Of a stretch of DNA of 64,000 nt, positions 1,399 to 61,941 are shown one piece after another. The translations under genes and the position numbers were made by a program. Source of the DNA: Candidatus Bipolaricaulota bacterium. GTDB lineage: Bacteria; Bipolaricaulota; Bipolaricaulia; RBG-16-55-9; DRXL01. Every line of letters begins with the position of its first letter. Within the stretch, counting starts at the first letter, position 1. The notes below the pieces were generated by a model. That model did not search any database, was not told the origin of the DNA, and saw only the letters and a program-made list of their open reading frames with translations. Location of the stretch: contig JAUQPG010000001.1 in assembly GCA_030550495.1 (NCBI GenBank), positions 44,512 to 108,511 of the forward strand. The letters run 5' to 3'.

Positions 1399-2208
1399 AT
1401 GCGCTCGGTATCGCTTGCCCCGGGATTAGAATTGATAGACCTGGCGCTCTTCTTGCCTGAACGCAGAGCGCTTGCTCTCGCTGACGTTCACTTGGGAATT
1501 GAAGACGCTCTCAAAGACGAAGGCATCCTCGTGCCAAGACAGCATCTTGCTCAAGTCCAAGAGAGATTAGAGCGTATCTTTAAAGAGCTCGCGATCACAC
1601 CTGCAGAACCATTAGAGAAAATTATTGTCAACGGCGATCTGCGCCATCAGTTCGGCCCGCTCTCGCGAATCGAGCATAAAGAGTCCAAAGAATTTCTGCG
1701 CTGGCTTGCTCCATGGACAGAACAAATTGTTCTCATCGAGGGCAATCACGACGGCTCGCTCCAGCACTTTGCCAATGAGCGCATTACAGTAACAAAGAGC
1801 CATAGCGAGGGCTACTGCTGGTTCGTGCATGGGGATGAGGCCCTCACTCCCAGCCCCTCTCCCGTGGGTCAGCCACGGGAGAGGGGTGGCCGCAAGGCCG
1901 GGGTGAGGGCCAAAGCGTGGCTCATCATCGGCCACGAGCACCCTGCCGTGGGCTTGCGCGATCCCGTCACTGGGCGCATAGAAATCTATAAGTGCTTTCT
2001 CGTGGGAACTTTCAAAGGGCACAATCTCTTGGTCTTGCCGTCGTTCAATCAGCTAGTGCGCGGCAGTGATCTCTTGAAAGAGCAGCCCCTCTCGCCATTC
2101 GTGCAGCAAAGCGATCTCGAAGAGTTTTCAGTCTATCCCGTCTCCGACGACGGACAGATCTATGAATTCGGCCCACTGCGCCGCTTACTCTCTCCCTCTC
2201 CCCTTTGA
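1399..2208 (+). CDS. Calcineurin-like metallophosphoesterase with an in-frame ~24-aa repeat-encoded insertion (TPSPSPVGQPRERGGRKAGVRAK)
   Basis: Motifs LADVHLG, IEGNHDGS, VHGDE and GHEHP. ATG 1399 sits 7 nt after TACAAT (1386-1391). Palindromic repeat at 1839-1911 lies between the GDE and GHEH motifs. Confidence 0.6.
   Translation: MRSVSLAPGLELIDLALFLPERRALALADVHLGIEDALKDEGILVPRQHLAQVQERLERIFKELAITPAEPLEKIIVNGDLRHQFGPLSRIEHKESKEFLRWLAPWTEQIVLIEGNHDGSLQHFANERITVTKSHSEGYCWFVHGDEALTPSPSPVGQPRERGGRKAGVRAKAWLIIGHEHPAVGLRDPVTGRIEIYKCFLVGTFKGHNLLVLPSFNQLVRGSDLLKEQPLSPFVQQSDLEEFSVYPVSDDGQIYEFGPLRRLLSPSPL
1839..1911. repeat. Nested palindromic repeat copy (a): GGCCCTCAC…CCCCTCTCCCGTGG-gtcag-CCACGGGAGAGGGG…GTGAGGGCC
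   Basis: Read directly: 9-bp outer inverted repeat and 14-bp inner inverted repeat. Lies inside the phosphoesterase ORF and preserves its frame. Confidence 0.6.
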
Positions 2209-2230
2209 GGGAGAGGGATACAGGTGAGGG
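2188..2230. repeat. Partial repeat copy (b): CTCCCTCTCCCC-tttg-AGGGAGAGGGA…GGTGAGGG, left outer arm missing
   Basis: Same inner hairpin as copy (d) plus the right outer arm. Spans the phosphoesterase stop and the folC RBS. Confidence 0.45.
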
Positions 2231-2234
2231 GAAG

Positions 2235-14168: not shown

Positions 14169-14294
14169 AAGGCCCTCACCTTCGCCTGCACGCTGCGCGT
14201 GGGTTTCATCTTCGCCCGCCTGAGCGGGCGAAGGCAAACAGTCCAGACGAGGTCTGGCACGCGTAGCATGCCTACAGGGTGGGGTGAGGGCCTT
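14169..14294. repeat. Repeat copy (c), long variant: AAGGCCCTCACC…(internal hairpins)…GGTGAGGGCCTT
   Basis: 12-bp perfect terminal inverted repeats 14169-14180 / 14283-14294. Internal hairpins TTCGCCCGC-ctga-GCGGGCGAA and CCAGAC-gag-GTCTGG. Intergenic between the lipoprotein gene and ltaE. Confidence 0.5.
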
Positions 14295-14300
14295 AATACT

Positions 14301-15326
14301 ATGCGAAAGATTATAGACCTCCGCAGCGATACGGTCACTAAGCCCACACCCCCGATGCGCCGCGCCATGGCCGAGGCTGAGGTCGGCGATGACGTCTTCG
14401 GGGAAGATCCCACGGTCAATAAGCTCCAAGAATACGCGGCTCAGCTCTTCGGGCGCGAAGCGGCGCTCTTCGTTCCCTCCGGAACGATGGGCAATCAGAT
14501 TGCTATCAAAGTTCACACCCAACCGGGGGACGAAGTGATCGTCGAAGAAGCGTCTCATATCTTTAACTCAGAGATGGCGATGATGGGGGCGTTTTCAGGG
14601 GTCATCCCTCGGCCGATTCCCAGTGAGCGCGGCTTTCTGCGTTGGGAACAGATCGAGCGCGCTATCCGACCAAAAGTCTATTACTATGCACAGACGCGTC
14701 TGATCTGCTTGGAAAACACTCATAACTTCAAGGGCGGAGGTGTCTATCCTGTAGAGTGGGCCAGAGAGATCATCGAACAAGCACACGAGCGCGGCTTGGC
14801 CGTGCACTTAGATGGTGCACGGATCTTCAACGCTGCTGTAGCGACGGGGCGTTCCGTGCAAGAGCTTACAGAAGGCTTTGACTCGGTGATGTTCTGCTTG
14901 TCGAAGGGGTTGGGAGCGCCAGTGGGCTCGATGCTTGTCGGTTCCGCAGAGTTTATAGAGAAGGCCCGCAGAGTGCGCAAGATGCTCGGCGGCGGGATGC
15001 GCCAAGTCGGGATTCTCGCTGCCGCTGGGCTCTATGCCTTGGAGCATCACATTGATCGTCTTGCCGAAGACCACGAGAACGCGCGAGTGCTTGCGGACAC
15101 CCTAAAGGAGATCCCTGAGGTACGCCTTGAGCCCGTCGAGACCAATATCGTGATCTTCGAGCTCTCCAAGACACCCGCCGAAAAACTGATCGCTGAGCTC
15201 AAGCAAAGAGCTATCTTGGCTTTAGCGATTGGGCCGCGCCGGGTACGCTTGGTGACCCATCTGGATGTGTCGCGAGAAGACGTGCGGTACGCGGCTCAAG
15301 CCATTCGAGAGATTCTCCAAAAATAA
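14301..15326 (+). CDS. ltaE: Low-specificity L-threonine aldolase
   Basis: [43 protein letters not shown]…SGTMGNQIA…[12 protein letters not shown] (PLP Lys). Confidence 0.8.
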
Positions 15327-23342: not shown

Positions 23343-23378
23343 ATGGACAAGCGCAACACAATAGAGTAAGATGAGAAT

Positions 23379-23485
23379 GGGCCTTAACCCGGTGATCGAA
23401 CCGCGTCCCCAGAGGCTGCTTTGGGAGACCCCGCCCAGGCCCTGAGGATGCATCAGCCTGTGGTTAAGGCCCTTTCTCTTTTATA
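23379..23485 (+). terminator. Long stem (GGGCCTTAACC…72 nt…GGTTAAGGCCC) followed by CTTTCTCTTTTAT
   Basis: Perfect 11-bp inverted repeat 23379-23389 / 23462-23472, then a T-rich tract, directly 3' of the CARDB gene stop. Confidence 0.35.
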
Positions 23486-23707: not shown

Positions 23708-24862
23708 GTGGGCACGTCACGGCTGGTCATAGTAGTTCTCGCCCTCTCTCTGCTGGGCGTGGTTATGGTCGCCAGTGCGAGCCTGCCCATCGCGGCTCTT
23801 CGCTACGAGCAGCCCTCGTATCTTTTGGTCAAGCATCTCATCGCCCTTGCTCTTGGGCTCATCGCTCTCTGGGTCTGCTCCAGAATAGATTATCACGTCT
23901 TCTTCAGAATAGATCATATACTCTTGCTGACGGCCTTGGGGTTGGCTGCCCTGACGCTCATTCCCGGCTTGAGCGTGCGCGGGAGCTGGCTGCGCCTCCC
24001 TGGGCCCTTCCAGCTCCAGCCTACAGAGTTCTTAAAATTCGCTCTGATTATCTCGTTCGCGGCGTTCTCCGTGCGTAAAGGGGAGCACATTCAAGAATTC
24101 TCCGACGGGGTCTTGCCCGTACTCATTTCGACGACATGTGCAGCCCTCATAGCGCTCAAACAATCCGACTTCGCTATGGCGCTGATCTTTCTGCTCATAG
24201 CCTTGTGTATGCTGTTTATTGGGGGGGCACGGCTGACCCATCTCGGCGGGGTCGTCTTAGCTGCTATGCCCACTTTGGCTCTGTTGCTGATCACTGCGCC
24301 CTATCGCTTCGGCCGACTCTTAGCATTCTTAGACCCGTTTAAATACAGCACGACTGAGGGCTATCAGCTCATTCAGTCGCTCACCGCCCTTGGGTCTGGA
24401 GGGATCTTCGGGCGCGGCCTAGGCGAGAGTCGAGCCAAGCTATTTTTTCTCCCAGAACCGTATAACGATTTCATCTTTGCGATCATTGGGGAAGAACTGG
24501 GTTTGCTCGGTGGGCTCCTCGTCGTCGGGCTCTTCGCGTATCTCCTATACGTCGGCTATAGCATTGCATGCCGAGCACCAGATCGGTTTGGGATGCTACT
24601 CGCTGCGGGGATAACGTTCACGATCGCGGCTCAAGCCGCGATCAACGTAGGAGTCGCTACCGGGATATTGCCTGTGACGGGCTTGACGCTGCCGTTCATT
24701 AGCTATGGCGGCTCGTCGCTCATCGTTTCGTCGGCGATGACCGGAACTCTGCTGAACATTGCGCAAAGGGGCTCCCATGAAGACGTTTCTCGTCTGTGGG
24801 GGCGGGACAGGAGGGCATCTCTATCCCGCTCTCGCCACGATAGAAGGGTTACGGCGCACTGA
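23708..24862 (+). CDS. ftsW: SEDS-family peptidoglycan glycosyltransferase FtsW
   Basis: 10-TMS FtsW/RodA pattern (…PTEFLKFALIISFAAF…, …GSGGIFGRGLGES…PEPYNDFIFAIIGEELG…). The 3' end overlaps murG by ~86 nt. Confidence 0.8.
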   Translation: MGTSRLVIVVLALSLLGVVMVASASLPIAALRYEQPSYLLVKHLIALALGLIALWVCSRIDYHVFFRIDHILLLTALGLAALTLIPGLSVRGSWLRLPGPFQLQPTEFLKFALIISFAAFSVRKGEHIQEFSDGVLPVLISTTCAALIALKQSDFAMALIFLLIALCMLFIGGARLTHLGGVVLAAMPTLALLLITAPYRFGRLLAFLDPFKYSTTEGYQLIQSLTALGSGGIFGRGLGESRAKLFFLPEPYNDFIFAIIGEELGLLGGLLVVGLFAYLLYVGYSIACRAPDRFGMLLAAGITFTIAAQAAINVGVATGILPVTGLTLPFISYGGSSLIVSSAMTGTLLNIAQRGSHEDVSRLWGRDRRASLSRSRHDRRVTAH

Positions 24863-25904
24863 GCCACGCGCTCGCCTCGTTTATGTAGGCAGCCGCTACG
24901 GACTCGAGACGCGAGTCCTGCCGCGATACCCGTGGATTGAATTTTATAAGCTCCCTATTCGTGGGATTGCTCGGCCGGGCCAGCGCCCCTTGTGGGCCCT
25001 CTGGGCGCTCCTCGCGATAGCACAGCTCCCGGCCGCGCTCGCTCAAGCCCTCTTCATTATCGCAACAGTGCGTCCTACGGCAATCATCGGTTTTGGAGGC
25101 TACGGGGCCTTTGCTCCGCTCGTGTGGGGAGTTCTCTTCAGAATCCCGATCTTTCTCCATGAGCAGAATCTCATTCCCGGGATGGTGACACGACTCTTTG
25201 CCCCCTGGGCAAGAAAAGTCTTTCTCACCTACCCCCAAACGGCCTGCTATCTCCGGGCACGGCACGTCATCGTGACCGGACTGCCCGTCCGCCCAGAGAT
25301 CCTTTCAGCTCGCCCTGATCATAGCCAGTTCGGATTGTACCCTGAGAGAAAGACCGTGCTGGTCTTTGGAGGCAGCAGAGGATCACAGATTCTTACAGAC
25401 GTTGCGCTCGCAGCACACCAGTATCTAAGTGACGTTCAGTTTTTGATTGTCTCACCCTCTTTCCCCTTGACGAGGAAGAGCGAGAGGGTAGTTCTCGTCC
25501 CATATATTCACGAGATGGGCACAGCTTTAGCAACAGCCGACGTCGTCATCTGTCGCGCTGGCGCTGCGACGTTAGCAGAACTCGTTGCTGTGGGTAAGCC
25601 CGCTATAGTTATCCCTTGGCCAGGCGCTGCGAACGATCATCAGACAATGAATGCTAAGGCTTACGCCCATCTTGGAGCTTTTTCTATAGTCCCAGAGTCT
25701 GAGCTCACCCCCCAACGGCTCGTGGAGGAGATCCAAAAAGCCCTCACCCAAAGCCGTGCCCCCCATATCAGAGGCCAGGGTGAGGGAGCGCTAAACTCTA
25801 TCTTATGCGAGGTGCTTTCCGATGCGACCAAAGAGCACGATACAGCTCCACTTTCTTGGGATCGGCGGCGACGGTATGAGTGGGTTGGCCAAAGTCTATT
25901 CTGA
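24777..25904 (+). CDS. murG: Lipid II GlcNAc transferase MurG (C-terminal ~25 aa encoded by or extended through a repeat copy)
   Basis: MKTFLVCGGGTGGHLYPALA…; GT28 C-terminal domain (…ICRAGAATLAEL…). Tail …ALTQSRAPHIRGQGEGA… is encoded by repeat copy (f). Confidence 0.85.
   Translation: MKTFLVCGGGTGGHLYPALATIEGLRRTEPRARLVYVGSRYGLETRVLPRYPWIEFYKLPIRGIARPGQRPLWALWALLAIAQLPAALAQALFIIATVRPTAIIGFGGYGAFAPLVWGVLFRIPIFLHEQNLIPGMVTRLFAPWARKVFLTYPQTACYLRARHVIVTGLPVRPEILSARPDHSQFGLYPERKTVLVFGGSRGSQILTDVALAAHQYLSDVQFLIVSPSFPLTRKSERVVLVPYIHEMGTALATADVVICRAGAATLAELVAVGKPAIVIPWPGAANDHQTMNAKAYAHLGAFSIVPESELTPQRLVEEIQKALTQSRAPHIRGQGEGALNSILCEVLSDATKEHDTAPLSWDRRRRYEWVGQSLF
25740..25787. repeat. Repeat copy (f), short variant: GCCCTCACCC-28 nt-GGGTGAGGGa, at the murG/murC junction
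   Basis: 9/10-bp outer inverted repeat read from sequence. Translated in-frame as the MurG tail; MurC ATG 25822 follows. Confidence 0.45.
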
Positions 25905-49941: not shown

Positions 49942-50762
49942 TCCAGCGCCCCCCGATGACGAAAGATCACGACACTCAGCGCAAGAGCTGACACTGTCCA
50001 TCCCACAAGCAGCGCGAGCAAGAAGGGCACCAGCGCATCGCCAAACGCGCGCAGCGCATACAGCCCTGCCGGGCCTAAGATCTCTAAATCTCCCTGAACG
50101 ATCAAGACTGCCAAGAGCTTAAAGCTCTGTAACGGGTTGAGCAGCGCCAGACTGAAGAGCTGTCCCACGCTGAGCCGGAGCACGAGCGCTGTGCCCATGA
50201 CGCCAAGATCGCTCAAGAACACTAAGAGAAGCCAGACGAAGAGCGCTGTGCCCATCGCGGTGGCTCCCTTCCGCGCCAGCGCCGAGATCAAAAACCCCAC
50301 AGCCAAACTCAGCAAGACCAGCAATACCGTCAGGCCCCACAGCGCAAGATAGAGATCGCTCTGAACGACCCCCCCGTGCCACGCGATCAGAAGCCCGCTT
50401 ATGCCAAAGCCTGCGCTCAGCGCTGCTATCAAAGCGAAAGCCAAACCGAGATACTTCCCGATGAGCACTTCGGCGGCGCTGACGGGTTGCGCCAAGAGAA
50501 AGAGCAGCGTGCCGCGCTCGCGCTCCCCAGCGATGCTCAATGCCCCCAGGGTCAGCCCCATCAGCGGGACGATCAAGAGGATCAGATTGATAAGACTGGC
50601 TCCGGTGCGCCCAAAGCCAGCGACCCCATAACTTCCCAGAGCGCTCAGTCCCAACCACATCAATGCCGACGCTAACGCGACAAAGACGAGCGCATAGAGC
50701 CACAGCCATCTATTGCGCCGCGCCTCTCGAACCTCTCTGTGAGCAAAAAGCAGCGTGTTCAT
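49938..50762 (-). CDS. nosY: ABC-2 type permease NosY
   Basis: Six-TMS ABC-2 permease immediately downstream of the nosD-nosF ORF, with the ABC-2 hallmark …SIAGERERGTLLFLLAQPV…. Confidence 0.7.
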   Translation of the reverse strand: MNTLLFAHREVREARRNRWLWLYALVFVALASALMWLGLSALGSYGVAGFGRTGASLINLILLIVPLMGLTLGALSIAGERERGTLLFLLAQPVSAAEVLIGKYLGLAFALIAALSAGFGISGLLIAWHGGVVQSDLYLALWGLTVLLVLLSLAVGFLISALARKGATAMGTALFVWLLLVFLSDLGVMGTALVLRLSVGQLFSLALLNPLQSFKLLAVLIVQGDLEILGPAGLYALRAFGDALVPFLLALLVGWTVSALALSVVIFRHRGALE

Positions 50763-52849
50763 AAGAGCTCAGAGACCCCTCTCCCGTCAATGTGCTCGAT
50801 CTGCACCAACCGCCCTTGTTCGAGCACCAACACCCGGTCAGCAACAGCGAGGATCTCATTATGGTGATGCGACGAGAAGATCAGCGTCTTTCCGGAGCTT
50901 TTGAGTTCGTTCAGCAGCTGCAAAAACTCTTTGCGGGTCTGGGTGTCGAGGCTCGCCGTTGGCTCGTCCAGGAGCAAGATCGGCGGATCGCCTAAGAGCG
51001 CTATAGCGAGCGCTACGCGCTGCTTCATCCCCCCAGAGAGCGTGCCAATTCTTTTATGCAAGAATTTGTCAAGCCCTAAACGCTGTATCACCGGGGGAAC
51101 AGCTTCTCGCAAGACGCCCTTCAGCCGAGCAAAGAAGAGAAGAGCTTCGCCGACGGTGAAGTCGTCAGGAATCTGAATCTGTTGGGGCACGAAGCCCAGC
51201 AAGCGTCGCACTTCTTTCCCTTGCCGGTGTGGATCGAGCCCGTCAAGCGCGATGGCTCCGTCATAGCGCAGCAATCCCAACAGACAGTGCAAGACCGTAG
51301 ATTTGCCTGCGCCGTTGGGCCCCCACAGCGCGAGGGCTTCGCCTGCCCTCACCGTGAACGAGAGATTCTCAACGGCTATAACATGGCCGAAGCGCTTGGT
51401 GAGGCCGCGCACGACGATCTCCCCCTCACCCCCAGCCCCTCTCCCCTTTGAGGGAGAGGGGAGCAAGGGGTGAGGGATAAGCCAGCGCACAACGCCCCAT
51501 CCGAAGCCGATGATTAGACTGATCCCCACAAACAACAACCATCCTGTCGCTGCTTGTGGCATCCCACTCCGTAGCGATGCTGCGCGCGCGAATTCCAAGG
51601 TCGGCAGTACCGGCGTCATCAGCGGCTGCGGGTCTATAAGCTTTGGCTGCGGCTGGAAGATAGGCAAGGCCCGCGCCGCAAACTCCAACGCTTGGATCGC
51701 CGGGCTGTAGAGAAAGAGCTTCATCTGGGGGTGTCGGTCTAGTAAGTCCTCGACAAGCCGTTCAGACTTGTAGGGCAGATCGCCTAAGCCGTCGCCGTCG
51801 GCGTCATAGCCGAGATAATCCCCCCAAAAGTTTCTCTCCCAGAGGTTGCCCACCAGCTGGCCCCCGCCAGCGATCCCCACGTGCTCAAAGTTCTCGATGA
51901 AGCTATTTTCAGTGAAGAGATCCCCGCGCACCGACGGCAGCATCATCACGGCCGTCTCGTTATAGGCGAAGAGATTCTTGCGAAAGACGACCGGCGTCTC
52001 TGGAGCTGACGGCGAGTTGTCGACAAAGACCCCGACGCTGTTGTCGGCGATCACGTTCTCGGCGACAGAAACGCTATCAGAGTCTTTGAGGCCGATGCCG
52101 TAGCCGCTGGGACCGCGATGCCCTAGAGAGAGATTCTTTGCTATCGTCACGCCCCGGCTGTACATAGCGTAGATACCCACAAAGTTTTTGAGCAGCGCGT
52201 TCTCTTCTATCCGTATCTCTTGAGCATACATGAGATGGATGCCGTAGCGCCCGCCTACAAAGCGATTCCCCCACACCGACACATTCTGCGAGTACCAGAT
52301 GATAGCATCGCGGGCGTTATACGTTTCGTTCTCTTGAATGAGCACGTCGGAGCTGTACCATACGCGAATTGCGTCGCCGCGCTCGGCCTCAGAGACGTCC
52401 AACCCAACGATCTTGTTACGACGGATGACGCTCCCCGGCGCGTCCTTGAGATAGATCCCAAAGAGCACATCAGAGAGCGTATTCTCTTCGATGATCGCAC
52501 GCGGAGCTTCAACTAAGATCGCTGAGTCTTCGTGGGCCAGGCTGCGCCCAGAATTTTTGAGCACAAAGCCCTTGAGCATGACATCTGGGGCAGTGACGCG
52601 CACGATAGTGCCCTGCCCCTGGCCGTCGAGCACAGCTCCCTCACTGATTAGAGTCAGGGGTTTATCAATGACGATTGGGCCGGTGTAGACCCCTTGAGGC
52701 ACGCGCAGGGTCGCTCCTGACGGCGCAGAAGCGATCAAGGCTTGGAGGGCCCTCATCCCTGGCCCCTCTCCCGTGGGGGAGCCACGGGAGAGGGGAGCTA
52801 AGAGAGCTATGCTCACAAGCAGTATGCCTAACGCTCTAATCAGCGTCAC
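50759..52849 (-). CDS. nosD: NosD (periplasmic beta-helix) fused in one ORF to NosF (ABC ATPase); linker encoded by a palindromic repeat
   Basis: Signal peptide; parallel-beta-helix repeats (…NKIVGLDVSEAERGDAIRVWYSS…). TM segment, repeat-encoded …PHPLLPSPSKGRGAGGEGE…, then Walker A GPNGAGKST, LSGGMKQRVALA, Walker B LLLDEPTASLD. Confidence 0.7.
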   Translation of the reverse strand: MTLIRALGILLVSIALLAPLSRGSPTGEGPGMRALQALIASAPSGATLRVPQGVYTGPIVIDKPLTLISEGAVLDGQGQGTIVRVTAPDVMLKGFVLKNSGRSLAHEDSAILVEAPRAIIEENTLSDVLFGIYLKDAPGSVIRRNKIVGLDVSEAERGDAIRVWYSSDVLIQENETYNARDAIIWYSQNVSVWGNRFVGGRYGIHLMYAQEIRIEENALLKNFVGIYAMYSRGVTIAKNLSLGHRGPSGYGIGLKDSDSVSVAENVIADNSVGVFVDNSPSAPETPVVFRKNLFAYNETAVMMLPSVRGDLFTENSFIENFEHVGIAGGGQLVGNLWERNFWGDYLGYDADGDGLGDLPYKSERLVEDLLDRHPQMKLFLYSPAIQALEFAARALPIFQPQPKLIDPQPLMTPVLPTLEFARAASLRSGMPQAATGWLLFVGISLIIGFGWGVVRWLIPHPLLPSPSKGRGAGGEGEIVVRGLTKRFGHVIAVENLSFTVRAGEALALWGPNGAGKSTVLHCLLGLLRYDGAIALDGLDPHRQGKEVRRLLGFVPQQIQIPDDFTVGEALLFFARLKGVLREAVPPVIQRLGLDKFLHKRIGTLSGGMKQRVALAIALLGDPPILLLDEPTASLDTQTRKEFLQLLNELKSSGKTLIFSSHHHNEILAVADRVLVLEQGRLVQIEHIDGRGVSELL
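51423..51476. repeat. Repeat copy (d): CCCTCACCCC-cag-CCCCTCTCCCC-tttg-AGGGAGAGGGG-agcaa-GGGGTGAGGG at the NosD/NosF junction
   Basis: Nested 10-bp outer and 11-bp inner inverted repeats read directly; in-frame within ORF 50759..52849. Confidence 0.6.
52748..52795. repeat. Repeat copy (e): GGCCCTCAtCCC…CCCCTCTCCCGTGG-gggag-CCACGGGAGAGGGG; right outer arm absent
   Basis: Inner hairpin identical to copy (a). Encodes …LSRGSPTGEGPG… immediately after the NosD signal peptide. Confidence 0.5.
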
Positions 52850-60616: not shown

Positions 60617-61941
60617 GTATTCGTGAAGCTTTAAAGCTGAGCTGGACGAATATCCGCGCGCATAAGCTGCGCAATGCACTGGCTATTGTCAGTGTCACTA
60701 TCGGGATCGCGTCAGTAATCGCGATTGTCACAATGACTACAGGGCTCCAAGATGCGTTGCTCGATACTCTCACGAAAGATCTCTTGCGAGCGAATATGAT
60801 CACGGTGAACGTCGAGGGGAGCACGGGGCTCTTTGGAACAGCCCAGGTCTTCTCTAGTCGTGATGTCGAGTATTTACGAAAGATCCCGGGCGTGAAGGCT
60901 GCTGACGTCATCGGGCGTGTGCGCGGGGATGCCCTGTATTTCAATAATCGTCGGCTGCTCGATGCGACAACTCGTATTACAACGAGCAAAGAACTCATCC
61001 CCCTGGACGCTGGACGCGGTGTCCAAACGAAGGGCGAGATCGTCATCGGGGCGCGCATCGCGGAGATCATCTGTCGGCGGATGATCGCGGAAGAGCGCCA
61101 GATCCCAGAAAACGACGAAGCCCTCAAAGAAGAGTGTAAAAGCCCTGGGACAAAGCCCGCACTGGCGCAGCGCATCTTAGGGCAATCGCTGAAATTGCGT
61201 TTTCTGGGAGCTGACGGTCAATTGAGTGAAGACGAACCTCAGATCGTGGGGATCGTGAAAGATTCGCAATTTATCATCGGCACGGCGTGCTACGTCGGCC
61301 CGGACTATCAGGGATTCACTGAGACGATCGATGGAGTCGAGGTCCCTGTCTATTCCGGAGTCATCGTGAGCGTCTCGGATTTGGGACAGCTAGGCACTGT
61401 CAAAAAAGCCATCGAGGAGTATTTTACTAACCCGAACTCTTCGGATGCGCGCAAGCTCCTTGGTGAGGAGAAGAAAATCGAGATCAACACCCTCGAAGAG
61501 ATCATTAGCGAGATCAAGAAGAGTTTTTTACAGTTCACGGCGTTCTTGGGGGCGATTGCGCTAGTCGCACTCTTAGTCGGGATGATCGGCGTGATGAACA
61601 TTATGCTGATCACGGTGAAGGAGCGCACGCGCGAGATCGGCGTGATGAAGGCGACTGGGGCGACGCGTACAGCAGTGCTCAAGCTCTTTCTTACCGAGTC
61701 GACGATTATCTGTGTTGTAGGAGCGGTGTTGGGCGTGCTCTTCGGGATGTTTCTCTCTATATGGTTCATCAAATTGACCGTTGCTTTGGCGCAAGGGCTG
61801 CGCGAGATCCCCTTCGTGTTTGTGCCCACATGGTACCTCATTGCTGTGCTCACGGGAATAGCTGTTGGGGTCTTGAGCGGGCTCTATCCGGCTTGGCAAG
61901 CCGCGCGGGTCAATCCCATCGAAGCCTTGCGCTACGAGTGA
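60613..61941 (+). CDS. ABC transporter permease, FtsX/MacB type with large extracytoplasmic domain
   Basis: N-terminal TM, ~250-aa periplasmic domain, then C-terminal 3-TMS FtsX bundle (…IGVMKATGATRTAVLKLFLTES…). Confidence 0.8.
   Translation: MSIREALKLSWTNIRAHKLRNALAIVSVTIGIASVIAIVTMTTGLQDALLDTLTKDLLRANMITVNVEGSTGLFGTAQVFSSRDVEYLRKIPGVKAADVIGRVRGDALYFNNRRLLDATTRITTSKELIPLDAGRGVQTKGEIVIGARIAEIICRRMIAEERQIPENDEALKEECKSPGTKPALAQRILGQSLKLRFLGADGQLSEDEPQIVGIVKDSQFIIGTACYVGPDYQGFTETIDGVEVPVYSGVIVSVSDLGQLGTVKKAIEEYFTNPNSSDARKLLGEEKKIEINTLEEIISEIKKSFLQFTAFLGAIALVALLVGMIGVMNIMLITVKERTREIGVMKATGATRTAVLKLFLTESTIICVVGAVLGVLFGMFLSIWFIKLTVALAQGLREIPFVFVPTWYLIAVLTGIAVGVLSGLYPAWQAARVNPIEALRYE

Follow-up and report, generated by a model that had tools for sequence, protein, structure and literature searches.

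Six copies of a GC-rich palindromic repeat, labelled c1 to c6, are dispersed over the 64-kb stretch of DNA analyzed here (hereafter the window), which comes from a Candidatus Bipolaricaulota bacterium (contig JAUQPG010000001.1). These elements were shown to belong to the BoxC/PIT/TM_ECO family of intrastrand triplex motifs. All six copies listed in the initial annotation of this DNA are present at the coordinates given there (Table 1). Four lie within coding sequence (c1, c4, c5 and c6), one runs across a stop codon (c2) and one is intergenic (c3); the earlier view that five copies sit in or across open reading frames (ORFs) with the frame unbroken thus holds for the four coding copies and fails for c2 and c3. 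The host is a hot-spring bacterium. Metagenome contigs from several samples, among them sediment of Great Boiling Spring, match the window at 99.8% identity, and the encoded proteins are closest to those of Candidatus Bipolaricaulota, with Acetithermum autotrophicum being 76% identical.

The constant part of the family is a unit composed of a hairpin (CCCCTCTCCC, loop, GGGAGAGGGG), a short linker and a mirror arm, GGGGTGAGGG; on the opposite strand it reads CCCTCACCCC-CAG-CCCCTCTCCC. This full module is found in four of the six copies (c1, c2, c5 and c6). Two of them are single units, c2 on the plus strand and c6 on the minus strand, and c1 and c5 have an arm on each side and therefore appear as nested palindromes. 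In c1, the left arm CCCTCACTCC and the linker CAG precede a perfect 14-bp hairpin (1854-1867/1873-1886, CCCCTCTCCCGTGG / CCACGGGAGAGGGG), on whose 3' side a small hairpin, GGCCGCAAGGCC, is followed by the right arm GGGGTGAGGG; the in-frame translation is ALTPSPSPVGQPRERGGRKAGVRA. The loop of c2 contains the stop codon of the phosphoesterase gene (TGA, 2206-2208), and the remainder of this copy is intergenic. The minus-strand in-frame peptide of c5, PHPLLPSPSKGRGAGGE, falls in the linker between the NosD membrane helix and the fused ATP-binding cassette (ABC) ATPase domain, and that of c6 (...PLSRGSPTGEGPG...) stands immediately C-terminal to the NosD signal peptide. Both c3 and c4 lack the inner hairpin and have only arms of 10-12 nt in common with the remaining copies. 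The arms of c4 (GCCCTCACCC / GGGTGAGGGAGC) are retained around an eroded inner hairpin, the in-frame peptide being ALTQSRAPHIRGQGEG. The 12-bp outer arms of c3 (AAGGCCCTCACC / GGTGAGGGCCTT) are perfect and enclose a unique branched palindrome of about 100 nt; its membership in the family is uncertain, with the arms alone being common to the other copies. This element is located between the stop of a PKD/plastocyanin-like gene (14162) and the start of a threonine aldolase gene. A GTG ORF over c3 (14199-15326) was dismissed as an artefact: its Pfam Beta_elim_lyase match begins at residue 40, and the real start is therefore the ATG at 14302. In addition, a lone half-stem, CCCCTCTCCC, in the NosD-ABC gene is possibly a relic copy.

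This anatomy differs from the one first proposed, in which termini were fixed and cores variable. The hairpin and one arm are the constant elements, since c2 is devoid of the left arm and c6 of the right arm, and the supposed variable core of c4 is merely a decayed hairpin that is intact at the same murG site in the related locus L211 (L-numbers denote compared loci).

Table 1. Repeat copies, a candidate relic and host genes in the window
Feature	Coordinates	Strand	Description
c1	1839..1911		Double-sided element inside metallophosphoesterase gene
c2	2188..2231	+	Single-sided element, CCCTCTCCCC-TTTGA-GGGAGAGGG-ATACA-GGTGAGGGG
c3	14169..14294		126-bp intergenic long palindrome
c4	25740..25787		Decayed double-sided element in variable C-terminal part of MurG
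c5	51423..51476		Double-sided element, CCCTCACCCC-CAG-CCCCTCTCCCC-TTTGA-GGGAGAGGGG-AGCAA-GGGGTGAGGG
c6	52748..52795	-	Single-sided element, minus-strand reading CCCCTCTCCCGTGG-CTCCC-CCACGGGAGAGGGG-CCA-GGGATGAGGG
Lone half-stem CCCCTCTCCC	50776..50785		3' end of NosD-ABC gene, just before nosY start; conserved in L128
Calcineurin-like metallophosphoesterase gene	1399..2208	+	Host of c1 and c2
murG	24759..25904	+	Host of c4; ORF extends 83 nt into murC
NosD fused to ABC ATPase (NosF-like)	50759..52849	-	Host of c5 and c6

Within the window, the motifs were counted against expectations from shuffled sequence. The string CCCTCACC occurs 11 times (1.9 expected), a number reached in none of 100 shuffles; CCCCTCTCCC with at most one mismatch occurs 13 times (6.3 expected), and the four 9-mer classes GGGNGAGGG, GGGAGNGGG and their complements total 19 (5.0 +/- 2.2 expected). 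In pairwise comparisons, c1 shares 34 nt with c6 at 94% and 23 nt with c5 at 96%, and c2 shares 24 nt with c5 at 100%. These frequencies in the window are far above chance, and the initial claim of a dispersed palindromic family of the miniature inverted-repeat transposable element (MITE) or repetitive extragenic palindrome (REP) kind was borne out. Dispersed short palindromes, some of them paired as in REPINs, would also be produced by a REP/REPIN family moved by a REP-associated tyrosine transposase (RAYT), or might arise as a chance or compositional product of a GC-rich genome. Such an origin is extremely unlikely: chance is ruled out by the shuffles and by the long exact matches between copies, the elements have neither the GTAG-type 5' tetranucleotide (GT(A/G)G) nor similarity to REP sequences, and in other genomes inverted copies enclose PF04480 DUF559 genes, not Y1 transposases. 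A known RNA family was likewise rejected as the identity of the repeats: at Rfam gathering thresholds tRNA is the sole match, and with E values up to 1 only meaningless miRNA-precursor matches appear, on c5 alone.

The BoxC/PIT element was reportedly treated in earlier work by Bachellier in the 1990s and by Hoyne and Maher in 2000. Under its more recent name, TM_ECO, it was defined by Holder et al. 2015 (PMC4666352) through the pattern CCCTCNCCC-N3-6-GGGNGAGGG-N3-GGGNGAGGG. They counted 3610 occurrences across 262 genomes of Proteobacteria, found GC-rich triplex motifs to be numerous in cyanobacteria as well, and placed each of the 23 copies of E. coli K-12 between genes. In vitro, the single strand folds into a triplex, which was not detectable in duplex DNA or in vivo; promoter or terminator activity and a link to mobile elements were not found, and local sequence variability is elevated around the copies (PMC4666352). 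The same E. coli sequences have also been described as HPG1/HPG2 G-quadruplex-hairpin motifs, none of them within ORFs (Kaplan et al. 2016, PMC5100583). Enterobacter asburiae reportedly has 143 copies. Contrary to the first impression that the repeat is not a named family, the module in the window is this element (PMC4666352, PMC5100583). When the linker range is relaxed to 2-8 nt, c5 fits the TM_ECO pattern on both strands. All three blocks are present in c2 and c6, with a linker of 5 or 3 nt and a one-position departure in the G-arm of each (GGTGAGGGG in c2, GGGATGAGGG in c6), and in c1 with longer loops; c3 and c4 do not match the pattern. The mirror symmetry required for G*G-C, A*A-T and T*A-T triads is also visible in the sequence of the window elements.

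When one genome was scanned for each species, exact matches to CCCTCAYYCCYRGCCCCTCTCCC, a 23-mer that spans the junction of arm and stem, turned up in at least 120 stretches. Among the matches listed, these belong to Chloroflexota, Proteobacteria, Cyanobacteria, Planctomycetota, Acidobacteriota, Armatimonadota and a Bipolaricaulota metagenome-assembled genome, their stems are conserved and their loops variable, and perfect double-sided copies resembling c5 occur in L039, L043, L044 and L013. Copies from other phyla lie in an open frame extending 150 nt on both sides in 54 of 128 cases, against 1760 of 2271 random positions, this being a crude test for a location inside a gene in GC-rich DNA, so that only cases with Pfam domains on both sides are counted as shown.

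Comparison with related genomes reveals DNA-level turnover of a palindromic element at sites that tolerate extra disordered peptide. Bipolaricaulota orthologues are hypervariable in length at all four coding sites. Many of them contain repeat-like peptides there (PSP..., GRG, GEG, RER) in differing frames, and more distant homologues have short plain loops. In the phosphoesterase, the alignment places the hypervariable c1 site between HGDE and WxxIGHEHP (the HGD and GHEHP motifs). At the DNA level, c1 is missing from L127; in L125 a 24-bp deletion has removed its hairpin, and in L126 it shows an 18-bp deletion and decay. The c2 site carries an insertion of about 44 bp in the window and L125, and c2 is absent from L126 and L127, where the phosphoesterase and folC genes overlap (ATGA). 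At the murG site, the double-sided element is intact in L211 (CCCTCACCCCCAGCCCCTCTCCCCTGCGAGGGAGAGGGAAGACAGGGATGAGGG) and decayed in L212, as in the window. The NosD-ABC protein of L128 is 92% identical to that of the window, and here the whole core of c5 between the arms is inverted and a different peptide is encoded (PHPQPLSPVRERGARGEGE vs PHPLLPSPSKGRGAGGEGE in the window); L129 has a decayed, one-sided copy. For c6, the 5-nt loop is inverted in L128 (GGGAG for CTCCC) with a perfect arm, and L129 lacks the copy. It is the DNA that is conserved, not the encoded peptide. Another copy of the repeat was observed in the 3' end of an unnamed gene upstream of nosD (L129:2865-2905), which encodes 252 aa in L129 vs 220 aa in the window.

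Each element is free of stops in three to five of the six reading frames, i.e. it contains stops in one to three of them, and the in-frame copies are therefore survivors rather than the outcome of a special property of the element. The initial annotation had suggested either that the element is generally stop-free or that it persists only as in-frame insertions. The former does not apply, and the latter agrees with the indels between relatives inside genes, which measure 18, 24 and 54 bp and are all multiples of three. The further claim that several copies are read through in frame, adding Pro/Ser/Gly/Arg-rich peptides, proved correct.

All four coding copies are situated in linkers or loops, and their peptides are of low complexity and disordered. 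For example, the AlphaFold model of the phosphoesterase (mean pLDDT 86) places the c1 peptide in a loop between strands 140-143 and 174-177, with residues 153-160 and 162-169 below pLDDT 50 and no secondary structure between the flanking strands; the peptide is accordingly predicted to be disordered. Such a placement would be expected if the inserts were selected as flexible Pro/Ser/Gly/Arg-rich protein linkers, with DNA palindromy being secondary. This explanation is very unlikely, given that the peptide itself is unconserved, the c5 site of L128 differing precisely through inversion of the DNA core, that orthologues exist with no insert or with very short loops, and that the same DNA is also found between genes. 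Moreover, exact DNA identity across phyla is beyond the reach of selection on so loose a peptide.

The stability of the single-strand Watson-Crick folds (-66 kcal/mol for c1, z -7.7; -83.6 for c3, z -8.6; -45 for c5, z -5.1) raises the alternative that the hairpins are selected cis-acting signals, serving as terminators or attenuators, mRNA-stabilizing stem-loops or donors of ribosome-binding sites. The c2 arm GGTGAGGGGAAG, which resembles a ribosome-binding site, is placed just 5' of the folC ATG (2235-2237) and uncouples two genes that overlap in relatives, and a GTG at the start of the ABC domain is preceded by the c5 right arm (GGGGTGAGGGGGAG), which is better conserved than the rest of c5. 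On balance, a signalling role is unlikely and would account for c2 at most. Four copies lie within coding sequence, in both orientations, and elements are absent, deleted or flipped in close relatives with the gene order unchanged. No element is followed by a T-run, the E. coli study reported neither promoter nor terminator activity (PMC4666352), and the NosD-ABC fusion is continuous in many phyla, which makes an internal start unneeded.

A different kind of selection has been proposed for E. coli, in which the motif is kept for its capacity to form triplex, H-DNA or G-quadruplex structures and acts as an adaptive generator of instability. The mirror-repeat geometry (GGGAGAGGGG / GGGGTGAGGG) is indeed conserved from E. 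coli to the window genome, the host sites are hypervariable, and both single-strand triplex formation in vitro and raised local variability have been published (PMC4666352). However, the triplex was undetected in double-stranded DNA or in vivo (PMC4666352), the organism lives at high temperature, any long palindrome would be expected to be equally unstable, and the presence of identical sequence in many phyla is poorly explained by a benefit to the group. The proposal is not needed to account for the observations and is considered improbable.

A clue to the origin of the repeats is provided by their neighbours in other genomes. Very long ORFs contain some of the copies found across bacteria, and in L061 the leucyl-tRNA synthetase (LeuRS) harbours a DUF559 domain enclosed by two inverted copies. 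Homologues of DUF559 are present in seven of the 120 listed repeat loci, each flanked by a hairpin of the motif type even where the copy that retrieved the locus is far away. DUF559 ORFs abut motif copies in L061, L006, L080 and L012, and motif-like hairpins flank DUF559 in L075, L056 and L078. Except in the loop, the sequence flanking DUF559 in L080, a cyanobacterial locus, is the same as c5, comprising the 23-mer, the G-stem and the following AGCAAG.

A repeat-blind test of this association used 80 metagenome loci chosen by DUF559 homology alone and extended by 600-nt flanks. The query was a 5-sequence alignment (a first 8-sequence DUF559 alignment was too divergent for the locus search), and the 80 loci are those closest to a query that was itself found beside a motif copy (47-67% identity). 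The density of motif 9-mers is 11-14 per kb in the 100 nt on either side of DUF559, 0.3-1.2 per kb at 300-600 nt and 0 inside the gene. Among 75 evaluable loci, the motif lies within 200 nt upstream in 48, downstream in 48 and on both sides in 37. The median ungapped inverted-repeat score is 19 for the two flanks of the same locus and 9 for flanks taken from different loci, with scores of at least 16 in 45 of 70 loci vs 7 of 70 controls; variant stems therefore co-vary on the two sides. Variants of the motif stem include CCCTCTCCC and CCCCCTCCC.

The DUF559 genes and their flanks form cassettes of 400-610 bp, in which a PF04480 ORF of about 105-130 codons is enclosed by two inverted copies of the hairpin-plus-arm unit, the whole unit being contained in terminal inverted repeats (TIRs) of 30-45 bp. 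The hairpin faces outward in most cassettes and the arm in a few (L147, L186 and L194). DUF559 cassettes in other phyla have TIRs identical to the repeat unit of the window. About one cassette in eight is open in frame on both sides, and Pfam domains of the host protein were recognized on both sides of DUF559 in LeuRS (L061:1640-2330), methionyl-tRNA synthetase (MetRS; L006:2080-2720), MetH (L133 and L137) and a DEAH helicase (L135); L143 is a weaker case, with a sub-threshold DNA-methylase domain on the downstream side only. These in-frame cassettes within housekeeping genes occupy inter-domain linkers and appear to be translated together with the host protein. In E. coli K-12, ycjD (L130:1530-2340) is annotated as DUF559 domain-containing, and its stop codon falls within the loop of a motif hairpin that has decayed; downstream, a partial duplicate of the ycjD 3' end follows after about 100 nt and a perfect copy, TM_ECO number 9, about 80 nt further on.

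In the literature, a survey of PD-(D/E)XK proteins groups VSR and DUF559 with an intron homing endonuclease (PMC3424549). A survey of programmed inversions found DUF559 domain-containing and endonuclease domain-containing proteins to be enriched as predicted targets, with an odds ratio of 14 for DUF559 (PMC9881135), an enrichment that the flanking inverted repeats may cause. No paper tying DUF559 or YcjD to BoxC/TM repeats was found, with subscription journals outside coverage and an earlier description possible. A plasmid vehicle for DUF559 was also considered and lacks evidence in the 14 plasmid records containing the domain, most of which are chromids or mislabelled chromosomes.

Taken together, it is likely that the window elements are selfish or neutral copies of the pan-bacterial GC-rich BoxC/PIT/TM_ECO repeat and, in turn, gene-less derivatives of DUF559 cassettes. 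The elements are retained at the boundaries of genes and in disordered linkers of proteins, which probably accommodate an additional peptide rich in Pro, Ser, Gly and Arg without harm. They come and go at orthologous sites, lose the hairpin by short deletions, flip the loop or core, and decay, and within genes survival is limited to stop-free versions with a length divisible by three. The window copies are probably gene-less relics of the cassettes, judging from their sequence. Single units (c2 and c6) would represent solo cassette ends, and the arm-hairpin-arm form (c1 and c5) could be what is left when the two palindromic hairpins of a cassette with outward-facing arms recombine. The inverted pairs of E. 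coli, such as TM1 and TM2 at a distance of 16 nt, may likewise be both ends of a cassette that has lost its gene. We infer that DUF559 mobilizes the repeats and that the Bipolaricaulota lineage has or had such a gene.

A broader proposal is advanced with roughly even confidence, namely that BoxC/PIT/triplex repeats as a whole are the TIRs and gene-less remnants of pan-bacterial selfish DUF559 (Vsr-like) cassettes of about 450 bp, that full and relic forms reside in frame in essential genes, and that the nested palindromes of the window are collapsed cassettes. Under this proposal, the stop-poor repeat ends, by encoding flexible Pro/Ser/Gly/Arg peptides, would allow both the full cassette and its relics to fit in frame within essential genes. 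This would amount to a stealth insertion for which splicing is unneeded, as may be exemplified by cassettes in LeuRS, MetRS, MetH and HrpA and by relics in NosD, MurG and the phosphoesterase.

Several observations weigh against an origin from DUF559 cassettes. DUF559 is absent from the window and from about 50 kb of related Bipolaricaulota DNA, as searched by tblastn and by a hidden Markov model built from eight DUF559 sequences, and the link to the Bipolaricaulota genome is therefore drawn through repeat sequence identity alone. The association between DUF559 and the TIRs in other genomes was shown for the subfamily nearest to the query (47-67% identity) and for E. coli YcjD, not for all DUF559 proteins. 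The orthologue comparison suggested with the initial annotation did uncover presence and absence of copies, and yielded no target-site duplication: relative to the empty sites, no direct repeat stands beside c1 or c2, in a test limited by the divergence of the relatives, and none was seen at the best-defined DUF559 cassettes. To our knowledge, no mechanism has been described by which a PD-(D/E)XK nuclease alone moves DNA. Finally, the core of c3 occurs only once in the window and in none of the compared loci, and this element may be something other than a family member.

These findings place a known repeat in a new host and with a new habit, tolerated in frame in a cell-wall enzyme, a phosphoesterase and a nitrous-oxide-reductase maturation protein, where it makes the host sites hypervariable across a whole phylum. 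For genome annotation, they imply that repeat copies may simply be what underlies low-complexity 'linkers', shifted gene ends and frames that seem to differ between orthologues. If the motif is indeed the end of a DUF559 cassette, a testable explanation would become available for how BoxC/PIT/TM repeats, a puzzle since the 1990s, arose and spread, and likewise for the function of the large DUF559 family, including E. coli YcjD.

Some additional features of the host genes and their surroundings were recorded. The NosD-ABC fusion is genuine: it is one 696-aa protein in which a membrane helix joins NosD to the NosF-like ATPase, and it is common, without the repeat, in Bipolaricaulota, Chloroflexota and other thermophile-rich lineages. 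The repeat as the creator of the NosD-NosF fusion was rejected on account of this repeat-free occurrence in several phyla. In the murG/murC overlap (25822-25904), the overlapping MurG tail ATKEHDTAPLSWDRRRRYEWVGQSLF is conserved across orthologues, presumably owing to the MurC frame. In four metagenome assemblies of the same species (L001-L004:2041-3001), murG is unannotated between ftsW and murC despite an intact ORF, and the single ORF listed in this interval is a 103-aa antisense one. Two inverted repeats of the window are unrelated to the family: one at 23373-23478, between the gene for a large CARDB protein and ftsW (17-nt arms, 94% complementary, 72 nt apart), and one at 61093-61219 (22-nt arms, 86% complementary, 83 nt apart).

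The cassettes and their relics can be compared with several known systems. EDxHD or Vsr-like homing endonucleases (the I-Bth0305I family) have been grouped with VSR and DUF559 (PMC3424549) and are also mentioned elsewhere (PMC9403480). As in these systems, a small gene for a nuclease of the Vsr fold occurs as a selfish insert in conserved host genes; unlike them, the DUF559 gene has no surrounding intron or intein and is bracketed by inverted repeats of 30-45 bp, homing being putative. In outline, the arrangement also recalls REP/REPIN-RAYT systems, with many gene-less palindromic copies and the same repeat, inverted, flanking a small gene of the nuclease type. Here, however, the flanked gene encodes a DUF559 PD-(D/E)XK endonuclease rather than an IS200/IS605-like Y1 transposase, mobilization by DUF559 is putative, and the repeat combines a hairpin with a mirror arm and has no GTAG motif. 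In-frame insertion into protein genes is also known from Rickettsia palindromic elements (RPEs), as reportedly described by Ogata et al. in 2000. RPEs are AT-rich, about 100-150 bp long and confined to Rickettsia. Both kinds of element are short palindromic repeats that lie in frame in coding genes and add peptide at tolerated surface positions, but their sequences are not known to be related.

The closest resemblance is to BoxC/PIT/TM_ECO itself. The window elements have the same succession of C-stem, loop, G-stem, short linker and mirror G-arm, and even the same A-to-T difference (GGGAGAGGG vs GGGTGAGGG). Stems are conserved and loops vary, copies are multiple and occur in both orientations with some inverted pairs, and local variability is a common trait. 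On the other hand, the window stems measure 10 nt instead of the 9 nt of E. coli TM_ECO, the linker is CAG/CTG or longer instead of TTA/CCG, double-sided 'nested palindrome' copies occur, and the host is a thermophilic member of Bipolaricaulota. Most distinctively, four of the six window copies lie in frame inside genes, whereas neither E. coli study found any within ORFs. An exclusively intergenic location is a property of the E. coli copies, not of the sequence definition, and the in-frame copies inside genes are a new variant of BoxC/PIT/TM_ECO.

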